In this document: positions 8,933-56,062 of the stretch, piece by piece
Layout: the number at the start of each line of letters is the position of its first letter
Numbering within the stretch: the first letter of the stretch is position 1
Assembly: GCA_964572925.1 (NCBI GenBank)
Contig: CAZNGW010000001.1
Location: 11,250 to 75,249, forward strand
Direction: 5' to 3'
Source: an uncultured Candidatus Cloacimonas sp.
Lineage (GTDB): Bacteria > Cloacimonadota > Cloacimonadia > Cloacimonadales > Cloacimonadaceae
Length of the DNA stretch: 64,000 nt
The notes under the pieces: model-generated
The model's input: the letters and a program-made list of their open reading frames with translations, nothing else
Database searches by the model: none
What the model was told of the DNA's origin: nothing
Translations under genes and position numbers: made by a program

Positions 8933-10816
8933 TTACAGAGATAGTTTCAGGCTGAGATAAAAATCCCTGCCAGGCTCTGGATAGCCATACTCACCTTGGT
9001 AGTCTGCATCGAGGATATTCTCCAGACCCATTTCAAATCCGAGCGACCGATATGGAATTTGCAGGCTTACATCGTGTTTCCAGTAGGAATCGAGACTGTG
9101 ATACAAACCATTGTCATCCTGGGAGAGTCTCTGGTGACGGTAGGCAGAGTTCAGATTGATAACTGCCTTCAAGGGAAGTTTCAGGCTCTGGCTGAGATCA
9201 ATGGTATGGGGTGGGGTTTCGGTAAGCCGGTAATCACTTTGCTTCAGATAATCCATCCAACAATAGCCAAGGGCAACCTGATAGGCTTTTGCCGGAGTAA
9301 TCACCAATTCAGTTTCAAGGCCGAAGGAATCAACTTTGTATACGTTGGCGTAGTGTCCAGCAAAAAGGTCAATCAGATTACGGGTGCGATTATAGAATAC
9401 ACTTGATGAAATGCTTGCAGTTTTACCAAACAGTGGCTGAAAGTGGCTTATTTCTGCTTTCAAAGCATTTTGCGGTTTTAGTTCAGGATTGCCCTTACTT
9501 GCCGAGAACAGCTGTCTCATAGTAGGTTGAGCACTGGCCAGGCCCAAAGCGAACTTGCTGGTTACACCGGATTTTCCAAGATATTCCAAGCCGCAAGCTG
9601 GTTCCGGCAGCAAATGCGTTTTACCGGTTTCACTATTGGTGCTAAAAACAGTGCCCAAAGCAGCATTAAACTTCAACCCGTCAAGCAGGGGAAGAGCATA
9701 CTGGGCAAAGGCAGAATGTATCGACACCCTGTTATCTGTCCATTCCAGATAGTAATCATTATCCTTACGGGTAGTGAGTAGCAGTTCACCCCGATAACCC
9801 AAATCAAGGGTTTGGCCTTCCCCAAACTGCATTTTCAGCTTGGGAACGAAGCTATAACTATCGGTGCGCATACTGGAATCGAGACTAAGAACTTCACTCC
9901 CATTCAGATAGTTAAATTCCAGCAAGCGATCCTCTGCGCGGTCTTGTGCCAGAAGAATCGTGAACAGCATGCGTTCACTAAACTGGAATTTTCCGCTGAG
10001 GCCAGCACTTTCTCTCAGCCAATTGTCGTAGCGTCGTCTCTTGCGTTCATAAATGGAGGAGGGAAGATTCTTGTCGTCCATCCTGCTGAGATTGAAATCA
10101 AATGCCAGTTCGTGAAAGTCCAGTAGATCATAACGGACTCCTCCATTCAAGTTGTATCTTGATCCATCGCTATTATCCCGAACCCCACCACTTTCAAAGG
10201 AAGTTGGTAGAAAATCACTGGAAAGCATAAAACCGTCAGTTTTTTGCCAAGCCCCTGAAAGACTGTAACTGAGATTATCGAAACTGTGCGAAGTGCTCAA
10301 CCGGTAGTCCTGGGCATTGTTCCTTCTGAAAACGGTCTCAAAGCTGAGCCAGTTGTCCCGGGAAGGACTATTGGTGATTATGTTAACCACTCCGCCCATG
10401 CTGTTTGAGCCAAATTGGGGAGATACCGGACCTTTGATGATCTGGATTTCCCTGATATCCAGCACTGATAGCTTGCTTAGATCAACATTTCCAAAATAAC
10501 CGTTATTGAGAGGTCTGCCATCAACCATTACCTTCACTTCGTTTTTGCGAAAACCACGGAGTCTCAGGTTGCTTTCGTCTTTACTGCCCAAAGTTGCGCT
10601 GATCCCGGGTAAGTTTTGCAGAGCATCCTTCAAGCTGGAGGCCTGGGAGGAAGGGCTTTCCACTCGCAAGAGCTGGCCAATCGCTTCAGAAGGGCTATTG
10701 ATAATAACCCTGACAGTTGGTAAAGTCCAGGTTTTCAGGCTGTCAGGACTTTGCCTGGCTGTCAGGCTAAATACCAGGAGACTGCAAAACAGAGCCGGGA
10801 TCAGCTTTCGGAACAT
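8933..10816 (-). CDS. TonB-dependent outer-membrane receptor
   Basis: Signal peptide, TonB-box-like TLPTVRV, plug motifs LRLRGF...VMVDGRP and IQIIKGPVSPQFGSNSMGGVVNIIT, C-terminal ENILD...PGRDFYLSL beta-strand. Confidence 0.93.
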   Translation of the reverse strand: MFRKLIPALFCSLLVFSLTARQSPDSLKTWTLPTVRVIINSPSEAIGQLLRVESPSSQASSLKDALQNLPGISATLGSKDESNLRLRGFRKNEVKVMVDGRPLNNGYFGNVDLSKLSVLDIREIQIIKGPVSPQFGSNSMGGVVNIITNSPSRDNWLSFETVFRRNNAQDYRLSTSHSFDNLSYSLSGAWQKTDGFMLSSDFLPTSFESGGVRDNSDGSRYNLNGGVRYDLLDFHELAFDFNLSRMDDKNLPSSIYERKRRRYDNWLRESAGLSGKFQFSERMLFTILLAQDRAEDRLLEFNYLNGSEVLSLDSSMRTDSYSFVPKLKMQFGEGQTLDLGYRGELLLTTRKDNDYYLEWTDNRVSIHSAFAQYALPLLDGLKFNAALGTVFSTNSETGKTHLLPEPACGLEYLGKSGVTSKFALGLASAQPTMRQLFSASKGNPELKPQNALKAEISHFQPLFGKTASISSSVFYNRTRNLIDLFAGHYANVYKVDSFGLETELVITPAKAYQVALGYCWMDYLKQSDYRLTETPPHTIDLSQSLKLPLKAVINLNSAYRHQRLSQDDNGLYHSLDSYWKHDVSLQIPYRSLGFEMGLENILDADYQGEYGYPEPGRDFYLSLKLSL

Positions 10817-10820
10817 TTGA

Positions 10821-11630
10821 TCAATAATCGGTAAGAACCGTTGACTGATATCCCGTCATACTTTCCGGAATGGTCACATTGAGGCTGGAAAGCGTATTGG
10901 GAGCCAGCGGGAAGTTAAAAACCTGGGCATCACCACCCAGTACAATCATTCTGGCAAGTTTTTTGAACTTCTTGTGCGAACCATCCATACTATCGTTAAA
11001 AGCGGGGAAGGTAGTTTTTTCTGAATTTAGGAGATAATAACCATCGTTGATCTGATCAAGGGTATAGTCCATCGTATAACCATCAACGGCGATCAAACGA
11101 ATCGTATCGGCGGTAGAAATGCCCTGCATCAGGTCGCTGAGCTTGATTGCGTCTTCCATCGTGCTTGACCAGTTTTCCACCGAGTGGATGGTAAGTCCTT
11201 TAAGTTCCACGGTTTTTTCGCTTCTACCGCTTTGCACTTCCACTTTTCGATACAGACGCACTGTGCCGGTGTTTTTCACCTTGAAAGCGCTGGGCAGGCT
11301 GAGAGAAGCCGGGAACCAGGTTTTACGGTTGTCAGAAGGAACCAGGAAGCCTTCTTTGAAAAGCTCCCAGTTCAGATCATAACCTGCATTAACGGATAAA
11401 CGAGGGCTCCAGGCATCGCTATCGGCAGTCACTATTTCGTAGGCAAAAAGGCCTCGAAAATCGGTAGTATCGGCTGCGGTGGGATCTACTATGTCCCGTA
11501 CAGCGGTTTTGAGGATAAATTGATCAAGTTTGTAACCATAAATATTGGTGTCGGTGGGGTTGTCTTTTTCACTGCATGCGGTGATCAGCAGTAAGACAAG
11601 CATGGTCAATAAAAGCAGGGTTCTTTTCAT
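10821..11630 (-). CDS. Lipoprotein with internal duplication resembling a Cys-less molybdopterin-oxidoreductase (sulfite oxidase/MsrP) catalytic fold
   Basis: Start at 11630 with GGAGG SD; lipobox LITAC; IKLSDLM...IRLIAVDGY...KKFKKLARMIV pattern and a related first repeat. Fold call is by eye. Confidence 0.6.
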   Translation of the reverse strand: MKRTLLLLTMLVLLLITACSEKDNPTDTNIYGYKLDQFILKTAVRDIVDPTAADTTDFRGLFAYEIVTADSDAWSPRLSVNAGYDLNWELFKEGFLVPSDNRKTWFPASLSLPSAFKVKNTGTVRLYRKVEVQSGRSEKTVELKGLTIHSVENWSSTMEDAIKLSDLMQGISTADTIRLIAVDGYTMDYTLDQINDGYYLLNSEKTTFPAFNDSMDGSHKKFKKLARMIVLGGDAQVFNFPLAPNTLSSLNVTIPESMTGYQSTVLTDY

Positions 11631-11638
11631 TCTTTTTT

Positions 11639-11658
11639 CCTCCATGAAAAGCAGGAGG
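11639..11658 (-). promoter_or_regulatory. SD-sequestering hairpin (riboswitch expression platform)
   Basis: Transcript CCUCC-UGCUUUUCAU-GGAGG: anti-SD at 11654-11658 can pair with the SD at 11639-11643. Confidence 0.6.
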
Positions 11659-11685
11659 CATGCAGGCGGTTTAGTCATTATTTCC

Positions 11686-11787
11686 TGCAGCCTTTCCAAA
11701 ATGGGAGGCTTGACTGTTTCCGGTCAAACCCTATCGGTGCAGTTCCCTGCCGGAAATCCAGTTTAGGATGCTACACTCGGCTATGCA
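11686..11787 (-). ncRNA. Moco/Tuco RNA motif (molybdenum/tungsten cofactor riboswitch candidate)
   Basis: Transcript has P1 UGCAUAGCC/GGCUGCA, CCGAG, P2 GUGUAG/CUGCAC containing CCUAA, hairpin UUGAC-CGGAAACA-GUCAA and GCCUCCC-AUUUU-GGAAAGG, like the E. coli moaA leader end GCCUCCCGUAUCUGGAAAGG (recalled). Confidence 0.8.
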
Positions 11788-11789
11788 GA

Positions 11790-11817
11790 CAGATTTAAAA
11801 AATAGCCTTTTTGTCAA
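11790..11817 (-). promoter_or_regulatory. Putative sigma70 promoter for the riboswitch-lipoprotein-TBDR transcript
   Basis: Perfect TTGACA at 11817-11812 on the minus strand, with an AT-rich -10 region just upstream of the RNA motif; exact -10 is unclear. Confidence 0.45.
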
Positions 11818-11876
11818 GTTTGATCTTTGTTTCGCTTTGCTTGTTCCACTCTCCCCACCGCTATCTAATCCGTGTG

Positions 11877-11922
11877 CCACCCTCTATCCACCCTTATTAT
11901 AATGAGGGTGGATAGAGCGTGG
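11877..11922. repeat. Intergenic palindromic element, copy 2
   Basis: Perfect 13-bp IR ctctatccaccct (11882-11894) / agggtggatagag (11905-11917), extended by ccac/gtgg; loop tattataatg. Confidence 0.8.
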
Positions 11923-12063
11923 GTAGCGCGTGGAATGAGCGGAGTAAGGAAGGGTTCAAAAGGGGTGTTGAACTGGTTTGATGCAATGGATGGGGCGGAG
12001 AAGTTCGTTGACAGAAACAATGGCTGAAGTTCGTTGGCAATTAGCATAAATAATGGAGAAGCC

Positions 12064-12951
12064 ATGTATAGATATCTTTTTTTAGCCTTTCTGATCGCAG
12101 TTTCGTCAAGCCTGGCAGCCTTGGAGCTCATTTTTCCCGGAGGTGAAAGGCTTGGTTTCACCCCGGACAAACTGCGCAATGAAACTTTGCAAAGCTTTCA
12201 AACTAAGCGGGATAAGGACGGAGCCATGCTCACTGAAAAATGGAGTGGCATCCCACTTTTACCCTGGCTGGAACGGATATATCAAGGATCATGGCAGAGC
12301 TTGAGAGTGCAAAGCCGGGACAATTACATTGTCCATCTTTCCCGCCTGGAGCTTGGTTCTGAAAACTGCTTTCTGGCGCTCAAAAATGGTGATCTGGAGC
12401 TATCAGAATATGACATCAGGGTCATTCACACAGCTAAGCGGGAAAGTGCCTGGGTAAGGAACCTCGCTTCGATCACCCTGGAGGATTTTCAACCCTTACC
12501 CCAGCCCCGGCAATTGCTGCTCTGGGAGAACTGGACTAAAGATAACAAGGCTTTGTTTAACACGGGATCCCTCAGATTGGATGAATTTATGTTGAAGGCT
12601 TTCGGCTTAACAGAAGGTGAACTGCTGCTTTTGGATAGCAAAATGAATCGAATTCGTCTGGAGGTTTCCGGAGAAATGGCCAATGGAACCCTTGAACTTA
12701 ATGGTGAAGGATTTCCCAAACTGGGAGGAAAGGCAGAACAATTGGGGCTCTCGGATTTGGTTTATCTCCAGGCAGGCCACTGCGCTCTGATCAGTAAAAC
12801 CGGCTTGGCTAACCTGACAAAGATTGGCCAGGAATTACGTTGGAATTGGGACGGGAAATACCTTAATAAGGTTAAAACACATAGGCAAAAGATTGAGACT
12901 AATGAATTGCCGTTTTCGCTACCGCAAGGAACCTGGTTGGAACTAAACTGA
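12064..12951 (+). CDS. Exported protein with an N-terminal Cys-less molybdopterin-oxidoreductase-like domain
   Basis: ATG 12064 with GGAG SD; signal peptide; WSGIPLLPWLE...VQSRDNY...LALKNGD...IRVI...WVRNLASITL parallels W.GV.L..ll...DgY...LA...nG...lRlv...vKwl..I. Confidence 0.65.
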   Translation: MYRYLFLAFLIAVSSSLAALELIFPGGERLGFTPDKLRNETLQSFQTKRDKDGAMLTEKWSGIPLLPWLERIYQGSWQSLRVQSRDNYIVHLSRLELGSENCFLALKNGDLELSEYDIRVIHTAKRESAWVRNLASITLEDFQPLPQPRQLLLWENWTKDNKALFNTGSLRLDEFMLKAFGLTEGELLLLDSKMNRIRLEVSGEMANGTLELNGEGFPKLGGKAEQLGLSDLVYLQAGHCALISKTGLANLTKIGQELRWNWDGKYLNKVKTHRQKIETNELPFSLPQGTWLELN

Positions 12952-55985: not shown

Positions 55986-56062
55986 TGGCGGGAGCGACGA
56001 GACTCGAACTCGCGGCCTTCTGCGTGACAGGCAGACGTTCTAACCAACTGAACTACGCCCCC
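55986..56062 (-). tRNA. tRNA-Asp (GTC)
   Basis: GGGGGCGTAGTTCAGTTGGTTAGAACGTCTGCCTGTCACGCAGAAGGCCGCGAGTTCGAGTCTCGTCGCTCCCGCCA: full cloverleaf, GTC anticodon, G73, encoded CCA. Confidence 0.97.

Follow-up and report, generated by a model that had tools for sequence, protein, structure and literature searches.

A 64,000-nucleotide (nt) stretch of DNA from an uncultured Candidatus Cloacimonas sp. (hereafter the window; assembly GCA_964572925.1, contig CAZNGW010000001.1, positions 11,250–75,249 of the forward strand) contains a riboswitch of the molybdenum cofactor/tungsten cofactor (Moco/Tuco) class, RF01055, followed by genes coding for a lipoprotein, P0001, and a TonB-dependent outer-membrane receptor, P0002. 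This gene pair is a new association for the Moco/Tuco riboswitch. The best explanation of the locus, in which sequence comparisons and structure models allow moderate confidence, is a cofactor-repressed salvage importer for preformed Moco/Tuco, which would probably make it the first candidate for a bacterial import system for the ready-made cofactor. The source genome (G000), a 2.72 Mb assembly that is 99.77% complete, codes for five pyranopterin enzymes, yet searches of it detect no cofactor biosynthesis, no metal insertase and no molybdenum/tungsten (Mo/W) oxyanion importer, so the organism would need cofactor import.

In the proposed pathway, P0001 and P0002 would capture an already assembled pyranopterin cofactor with its metal in place (Moco, Tuco or both, or a closely related derivative) and import it across the outer membrane. 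The product of a divergent gene, P0003, would carry the cofactor through the periplasm, and an energy-coupling factor (ECF)-type transporter encoded elsewhere in the genome would perform the inner-membrane step. In some lineages a secreted pyrophosphatase may trim dinucleotide forms of the cofactor. That the cargo is salvaged cofactor appears reasonably probable. Order-wide counts refer to 41 Cloacimonadales genomes; G-numbers denote genomes, C contigs and L loci.

The riboswitch and its expression platform

A scan of the whole window against Rfam with Infernal places RF01055 on the minus strand at 11674–11794, with 58.3 bits against a gathering score of 36 (E = 2.1e-11) and a match to the full model, positions 1–135. 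An earlier note on this DNA had proposed a Moco/Tuco riboswitch candidate here, and the score, well over the gathering score, bears this out. The transcript quoted in that note corresponds exactly to window positions 11787–11686 of the minus strand, and the elements it named (P1, CCGAG, CCUAA, a GAAA hairpin and GCCUCCC...GGAAAGG) are all found. Its placement of a GGCA tetraloop on P2 is wrong: the tip of P2 is CUGG-AUUU-CCGG, and GGCA sits in the 3' strand and receptor bulge. The aptamer comprises the following elements.

11674–11794, minus strand: P3-less Moco/Tuco riboswitch aptamer (RF01055), identified by cmscan and by covariation among 40 homologues
11787–11779 with 11692–11686, minus strand: aptamer helix P1, UGCAUAGCC / GGCUGCA
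11767–11763, minus strand: CCUAA receptor half of P2
11735–11733, minus strand: site of P3, reduced to GAU, between P2 and the AGGG junction
11720–11717, minus strand: GAAA tetraloop of P4
3' part of the aptamer, minus strand: P5 and junction, GCCUCCC...GGAAAGG

The compact form described in the note, with no separate P3 and no extra arm after P2, is confirmed. Model positions ~62–76, which form the P3 hairpin, have no counterpart in the window element, where GAU alone separates P2 from the AGGG junction. In an alignment of 40 distinct RF01055 copies from Cloacimonadales, no copy has a P3 arm (0/40), and ~3 nt occupy that site. The same alignment exhibits compensatory changes at 21 of 27 pairs (RNAalifold). 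Standard pairs fill 95.0% of pair cells, compared with 74.6% in column shuffles and 29–42% in slid registers, and the covariation score of 0.592 compares with 0.192 for shuffled alignments, none of 500 of which reaches it. Helices P1, P2, P4 and P5 are covariation-supported, a GNRA tetraloop and its receptor in the P2 bulge are present, and CCGAG, AGGG, GCCUCCC and GGAAAGG are invariant or nearly so across the 40 sequences. Because pair conservation and covariation both exceed the controls, the aptamer is real and under structural selection. The window element is, with near certainty, a genuine RF01055 member of the Moco/Tuco riboswitch class, and as an aptamer it is unremarkable, a well-supported addition to a class and subclass already known. 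RF01055 matches are present in 37 of the 41 genomes, and the source genome contains a second P3-less copy on contig 14 (57.2 bits). The sole other Rfam match in the window is a tRNA gene (55989–56062, minus strand, 71.3 bits).

The Rfam match ends at 11674, 44 nt upstream of the start codon of P0001 at 11630. The intervening leader contains a Shine-Dalgarno (SD) sequence, a complementary anti-SD and a hairpin that can occlude the latter.

11628–11692, minus strand: expression platform, with anti-sequestor hairpin, anti-SD, SD and AUG
11692–11684 with 11666–11657, minus strand: anti-sequestor hairpin, GGCUGCAGG (which includes the P1 3' strand) paired with CCUGCAUGCC
11658–11654, minus strand: anti-SD, CCUCC
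11643–11639, minus strand: SD, GGAGG
11630–11628, minus strand: AUG start of P0001

The anti-sequestor hairpin and P1 need the same strand and therefore compete, and since the hairpin and the anti-SD have a GCC in common, only one of the two downstream helices can exist at a time. In the absence of ligand, the P1 3' strand would pair with the CCUGCAUGCCUCC segment as the anti-sequestor hairpin and leave the SD open. With cofactor bound, P1 would form and the CCUGCAUGCCUCC segment would be released, whereupon its CCUCC could pair with the GGAGG SD of the first gene and turn translation off. With the P1 core constrained to form, a stand-in for the ligand-bound state, the window SD has a mean unpaired probability of 0.08 instead of 0.86; in 22 of 22 homologous leaders the constraint gives ≤0.08. 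Leaders of the lipoprotein class share one order of elements: P1 3' strand, loop, complement of the P1 3' strand, GCCUCC, variable loop, GGAGG and AUG. The anti-sequestor hairpin is present in all 16 distinct leaders (folding free energy –10.4 to –15.0 kcal/mol, z –2.3 to –5.2), with stem sequences that vary by lineage (GGCUGCAGG/CCUGCAUGCC, GGCAACAGGG/CCCUGUUUGCC and GGCGGGACAG/CUGUCUUGCC), and the CCUCC:GGAGG helix is retained in 21 of 21. No terminator-like site is found in 11400–12200, which favors translational control over transcription termination as the mechanism. A scan of the minus strand identifies no sigma-70 promoter; TTGACA at 11817–11812 is not accompanied by a properly spaced –10 element. 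The modeled leader folds make it rather likely that the riboswitch acts as a translational OFF switch.

The regulated genes and their partners

The genes assigned to the putative pathway are located in the window and on contig 87 of the source genome.

10821–11630, minus strand: P0001, lipoprotein of 269 amino acids (aa) with lipobox LITAC and Cys19, first gene under the riboswitch
8933–10816, minus strand: P0002, 627-aa TonB-dependent outer-membrane receptor with a Plug domain and a BtuB-type profile
12064–12951, plus strand: P0003, 295-aa product of the divergent gene, with a signal peptide and a predicted Cys-less SUOX-type molybdopterin-binding fold
G000:C87:3162–6878 (L076), plus strand: ECF-type operon with a PF09819 S-component, a 364-aa P0003 paralogue, a double ATPase and EcfT

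The P0002 gene starts 4 nt past the P0001 stop codon. Its product contains a Plug domain (PF07715, 76 bits), and its best NCBIfam model is TonB-B12, which it matches over residues 56–624 at 111.6 bits, under the model cut-off. Downstream of P0002 lie a 118-nt gap and then unrelated isoprenoid and sugar genes. The riboswitch is found immediately upstream of P0001 homologues in 9 of 9 loci at 47–74% identity. An exhaustive HMMER search for P0001 recovers 96 relatives, and among remote relatives with readable contigs (n = 6), five have RF01055 upstream; the gene association is kept over 27–74% protein identity. The order of lipoprotein and receptor is conserved, and in most relatives the best-scoring riboswitch precedes the same pair.

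Two loci depart from this pattern. In Candidatus Cloacimonas sp. AnMBR.bin134 (G020, L012/L028), the P0001 orthologue is split over two frames (residues 1–159 and 163–269), a split that is due either to a frameshift or to a mistake in the assembly; both the riboswitch and the receptor remain whole. In GCA_016926315.1 and on a Logan contig (L082/L083), a P0001-like lipoprotein and receptor stand back-to-back with a porin-like 366-aa gene and TupA/TupB/TupC, and the 215-nt intergenic region contains no RF01055 match.

Neither P0001 nor P0003 matches a Pfam or NCBIfam family, and profile searches find no sequence-level match of either to a solved structure. The homologues of P0001 (n = 134) all belong to Cloacimonadota and are annotated 'hypothetical'. 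The AlphaFold2 model of P0001 (mean predicted local distance difference test, pLDDT, 94.2; predicted template modeling score, pTM, 0.85) has as its best PDB fold matches the PruR pterin-binding proteins of four species, including the neopterin complex 7rkb, at probability 1.00, E 2.8e-3 to 5e-2 and a template modeling (TM) score of ~0.52 on the target over ~137 columns. The AlphaFold2 model of P0003 (pLDDT 87.1) matches PruR in Foldseek at E = 2.3e-7 and TM 0.71. Further fold matches of P0003 are sulfite dehydrogenase, YedY (including the W-cofactor form 1xdy), SoxCD, chicken sulfite oxidase and the Mo domain of nitrate reductase, and its homologue in G029, a secreted protein, matches PF00174. 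In neither family is any cysteine conserved except the lipobox Cys. An internal duplication in P0001 is unsupported at the sequence level (hhalign of the N half versus the C half, probability 13%), and hhalign gives a probability of only 12% to homology between the P0001 and P0003 families. These models predict a PruR/SUOX-like pterin-binding fold for P0001, which may sit at the cell surface and bind the cargo there. P0003, whose relatives are syntenic with the riboswitch locus in most members of the genus, is a candidate periplasmic cofactor carrier.

The contig 87 operon codes for a fused double ATP-binding cassette (ABC) ATPase, a CbiQ/EcfT protein and the SUOX-fold paralogue of P0003 beside the S-component, and is the likely inner-membrane partner of the window locus. 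In G029 and G037 (L079, L064 and L061), which represent other families of the order, a single riboswitch-controlled operon contains both a P0001-like lipoprotein and a PF09819 ECF S-component, together with genes for a PF00174-like secreted protein, a secreted PF01663 phosphodiesterase/nucleotide pyrophosphatase and ABC ATPases; the L079 operon has two ABC ATPase genes and a TonB receptor gene as its last member. G021 and G022 have the riboswitch immediately before a pair formed by an S-component and a SUOX-like protein. The PF01663 enzyme (L079:2833–4095, and also in L064 and L061) is absent from the source genome. It could trim dinucleotide forms, molybdopterin guanine and cytosine dinucleotide (MGD, MCD), to the molybdopterin (MPT) form. 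On a metagenomic contig, a cysteine synthase gene (L078:1456–2349; CysK/CysM-like, 375 bits) stands between a P0001-like lipoprotein and an ECF S-component, under a riboswitch.

Other copies of the riboswitch define a wider regulon. In at least 10 relatives, a second copy precedes a gene coding for an NAD-dependent aldehyde dehydrogenase (ALDH) of ~540 aa (PF00171).

L049–L055, L058, L060 and L065: ALDH-linked copies, in G019, G005, G007, G010, G012, G011, G022, G023, G037 and G033
G000:C14:4569–4689 (L003), minus strand: second copy in the source genome, with the CCUUCC...GAAAAGG signature of the ALDH class

Control of ALDH suggests a cofactor-sparing arrangement, in which the pterin-independent enzyme would be off when cofactor for enzymes of the AOR family is available. 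B12 riboswitches on B12-independent isozymes are a parallel to this pairing. In several genomes a riboswitch copy lies directly upstream of an AOR gene, and in G032 the P3-less RF01055 class controls WtpABC. At L063 (G029:C19), an RF01055 copy is located 221 nt upstream of a gene for a 597-aa [FeFe]-hydrogenase large subunit, an unexpected target. Beyond the second copy in the source genome, ~680 nt contain no open reading frame; next comes a gene for a 628-aa repeat protein with a type IX secretion system (T9SS) sorting domain. Neither an ALDH gene nor a remnant of one follows this copy, and no ALDH is found anywhere in the source genome, so the copy appears to be an orphan after gene loss.

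Such an orphan, without a recognizable regulated gene, is what could be expected if the window aptamer were likewise a relic, or if it regulated something else (for example, as antisense on the divergent gene), with the lipoprotein and receptor unrelated to Mo/W cofactors. This is very improbable, because different families of the order preserve the whole series of riboswitch, anti-sequestor, anti-SD, SD and AUG through compensatory changes, and because the association with the gene pair persists at protein identities as low as 27%.

Cofactor enzymes without a biosynthetic pathway

The five pyranopterin enzymes of the source genome comprise two AOR-family proteins and three full-length XDH-family Mo-binding subunits.

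C49:4520–6883, minus strand: XDH-family Mo-binding subunit
C15:4125–6488, plus strand: XDH-family Mo-binding subunit
C56:6088–8445, plus strand: XDH-family Mo-binding subunit
C91:5269–7491, plus strand: AOR-family protein with AFOR_N and AFOR_C
C37:15703–17634, minus strand: AOR-family protein, GAPOR-like

No enzyme of the bis-pyranopterin guanine dinucleotide (bis-PGD) type is found in the source genome. Searches by phmmer and tblastn with the E. coli K-12 proteins and with the G032 operon moeA-moaA-moaC-MOSC-MOSC-moaB as queries detect no MoaB, MoaC, MoaD, MoaE, MoeA, MobA, MobB, MOSC or ModA in it, and no true MoaA; TupA and WtpA are likewise not found there. The MoeB matches are ThiF-like only, and the ModB-like permeases belong to the Pst and Pot systems only. 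Several other candidates were rejected: the C126 protein is a generic radical-SAM/SPASM protein (78 bits versus the MoaA cut-off of 284), C39 is CinA, the SBP_bac_11 match on C41 is PstS, C74 is a thiamine-type binding protein and C21 is PotA. The source genome is thus a clear case, by its gene content, of the 'orphan molybdoprotein' condition. The distribution across the order is similar.

AFOR_N (AOR family): 37 of 41 genomes
MoaC: 2 of 41 genomes, G032 and G033
MoeA_N: 1 of 41 genomes, G032
TupA-like: 1 of 41 genomes, G033
WtpA: 1 of 41 genomes, G032, under a riboswitch (384 bits, cut-off 355)
ModA: 2 of 41 genomes, G032 and G028

Dependent enzymes occur where no genes for synthesis of the cargo are found, as would be the case in a salvaging organism; MoaC is absent from 39 of the 41. 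G024, G035 and G036 are without both AOR and the riboswitch. Thirty-eight of the genomes, the source genome included, have no TupA, WtpA or ModA, and oxyanion importers are essentially confined to the genomes with biosynthesis genes (G032 and G033). Most of the 41 combine pyranopterin enzymes and the riboswitch with neither kind of gene. The single-contig genomes G019, G026 and G037 share the same absences, which therefore are not an artefact of binning.

The chief alternative is that the lipoprotein and receptor import tungstate or molybdate, free or metallophore-bound, with the SUOX-like domains binding an oxyanion or metal complex. Transporters of molybdate and tungstate are the classical targets of Moco RNAs (PMC2408646), as WtpABC is of the P3-less riboswitch in G032, and the SUOX fold touches the metal centre as well as the pterin. 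The pair also adjoins TupABC at L082/L083, although that cluster has its own porin-like gene for the Tup system. Imported metal would, however, lack TupA, WtpA or ModA for inner-membrane passage in those 38 genomes, and with MoeA missing in 40 of 41 and MoaC in 39 it would have no known route into the cofactor. The lipoprotein and P0003 have no conserved metal-ligating Cys. In addition, ECF S-components and a nucleotide pyrophosphatase as operon partners belong typically to the handling of vitamins and cofactors, which favors salvage over oxyanion uptake. Since nearly all genomes are without a known Mo/W importer, MoeA and MoaC, metal uptake is disfavored and regarded as unlikely.

A different pterin might be imported or sensed instead, such as a breakdown product, cyclic pyranopterin monophosphate (cPMP), metal-free MPT or a neopterin/monapterin-type signal, or the operon might serve an unrelated nutrient, with the missing steps performed by enzymes yet to be recognized. 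In favor of this proposal, cPMP is the most stable intermediate of the Moco pathway. The closest fold, that of PruR, belongs to a signaling protein that binds small non-Moco pterins, and Peng et al. 2018 (PMC6147048) proposed unknown biosynthetic components in 'orphan molybdoprotein' organisms. Use of cPMP or MPT, however, needs MoaD/E, MoeB, Mog and MoeA, all of which are absent, and no DcpA-type signaling partner is present at the locus. The riboswitch class is tied to the finished cofactor, so that the cofactor would be both sensed and supplied, as with B12 and thiamine pyrophosphate (TPP) transporters. This alternative is accordingly improbable, more so than metal uptake.

Several points weigh against import of the finished cofactor. 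The PruR match of P0001 is borderline (E = 2.8e-3 over ~137 of 269 residues), with no solved structure matched at the sequence level, and PruR itself binds small non-Moco pterins (PMC11194511). The contig 87 ECF operon has no riboswitch. L082/L083 is, through its TupABC neighbours, the sole context found that ties the gene pair to tungstate. Free Moco is chemically unstable, and according to reviews it is too labile for uptake, so that each cell using it has to make its own, C. elegans being the one exception (PMC9026282). Finally, gene absence in metagenome-assembled genomes is never absolute, though G019, G026 and G037 agree. With these points included, salvage of preformed Moco/Tuco is still the best explanation. 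Whether the Cloacimonadales as a group are natural Moco/Tuco auxotrophs, scavenging finished cofactor from their communities by a dedicated riboswitch-repressed pathway, is an evenly balanced proposition.

The ligand could be Tuco, Moco or both. The suggestion in the earlier note that P3-less variants had been proposed as Tuco sensors agrees with Regulski et al. 2008 (PMC2408646), in which 58 of 176 Moco RNA representatives are without P3, correlating with Tuco use; direct ligand binding could not be shown in that study, as the ligand is unstable. The tungsten-use indicators of the source genome are mixed: tupA and wtpA, the 2008 indicators, are absent, and three XDH-family enzymes, of a type that normally uses Mo, stand beside two AOR-family genes. 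A ligand that is specifically Tuco is a tentative assignment, somewhat short of an even chance. Since every copy in the 37 genomes is P3-less, this form may here respond to the pyranopterin pool as a whole and not to Tuco alone.

If the salvage interpretation is correct, this would be the first bacterial uptake system for a Mo/W cofactor and a mechanistic answer for the 'orphan molybdoprotein' prokaryotes. Moco/Tuco would join B12 and thiamine as shared 'public-good' cofactors of anaerobic communities. Salvage would also help to explain why Cloacimonadota resist cultivation. P3-less Moco-class riboswitches could then govern salvage instead of synthesis, and the locus would yield proteins that stabilize and carry the cofactor. 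The literature search, which left most subscription-journal papers outside its reach, returned no prior description of bacterial Moco uptake or salvage or of this type of locus.

Comparison with known systems

The Cloacimonas element shares with the E. coli moaA leader and the Moco RNA motif the P1-P2-P4-P5 arrangement, the GAAA tetraloop and CCUAA receptor, and the CCGAG, AGGG, GCCUCCC and GGAAAGG segments. The proposed OFF control, with the ribosome-binding site tied to P1 formation, also resembles that of the motif as described in 2008. It differs in having no P3 and in an SD that lies outside P1 and would be sequestered by a separate anti-SD together with a co-varying anti-sequestor hairpin. 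It also controls a lipoprotein and TonB receptor rather than moa, mod or enzyme genes; PMC2408646 makes no mention of TonB or outer-membrane genes. Like the P3-less 'Tuco' variants, the element lacks P3 and occurs in an anaerobic host with AOR-family enzymes, and its class is found on WtpA and AOR genes in relatives. Unlike those variants, it resides in a host without tupA or wtpA and with three XDH-family (Mo-type) enzymes.

In Bacteroides, a cobalamin riboswitch is associated with BtuB and the surface lipoprotein BtuG, a beta-propeller. The Cloacimonas locus has a BtuB/BtuG-like layout, with a riboswitch upstream of a lipobox lipoprotein and, 4 nt away, a TonB receptor with a plug and a BtuB-type profile. 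Pairing of a cofactor riboswitch with a TonB receptor, for B12 and, through TPP, for a thiamine receptor, is cited in PMC5317091. By analogy, the proposed design follows these known systems of TonB-dependent cofactor salvage, in which a riboswitch represses a TonB receptor paired with a lipoprotein in a cofactor-salvaging host. The difference lies in the proposed cargo, a pyranopterin Mo/W cofactor without a described importer in bacteria, and in the lipoprotein, whose predicted fold is SUOX/PruR-like and not the beta-propeller of BtuG.

The PruR proteins are periplasmic pterin binders whose fold derives from the Moco-binding fold of SUOX but lacks the Cys (PMC11194511; PDB 7kom, 7kos, 7kou, 7kp2 and 7rkb). 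P0001 and P0003, for both of which PruR is the best structural match, similarly have an exported, Cys-less SUOX-type fold. PruR, however, is ~150 aa long, is encoded next to dcpA, binds tetrahydromonapterin-type pterins and acts in cyclic di-GMP (c-di-GMP) signaling, whereas P0001 and P0003, at 269–295 aa, have extra domains, do not resemble PruR in sequence and are associated with transporters and a Moco riboswitch. Lacking sequence homology, the ~150-aa single domain and a DcpA-type neighbour, they resemble PruR in fold and are not members of the PruR family.

At the level of physiology, the closest comparisons are with C. elegans, which takes up dietary Moco and in which no transporter for it is known (PMC7849362, PMC9793310), and with the several hundred 'orphan molybdoprotein' prokaryotes, whose mechanism was left unexplained (Peng et al. 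2018, PMC6147048). All combine Moco enzymes with the lack of a pathway, and thus a cofactor obtained from other organisms. In contrast to those cases, the Cloacimonas locus offers specific, regulated genes as named and testable candidates for bacterial Moco/Tuco import, together with a regulatory RNA that ties them to the cofactor.

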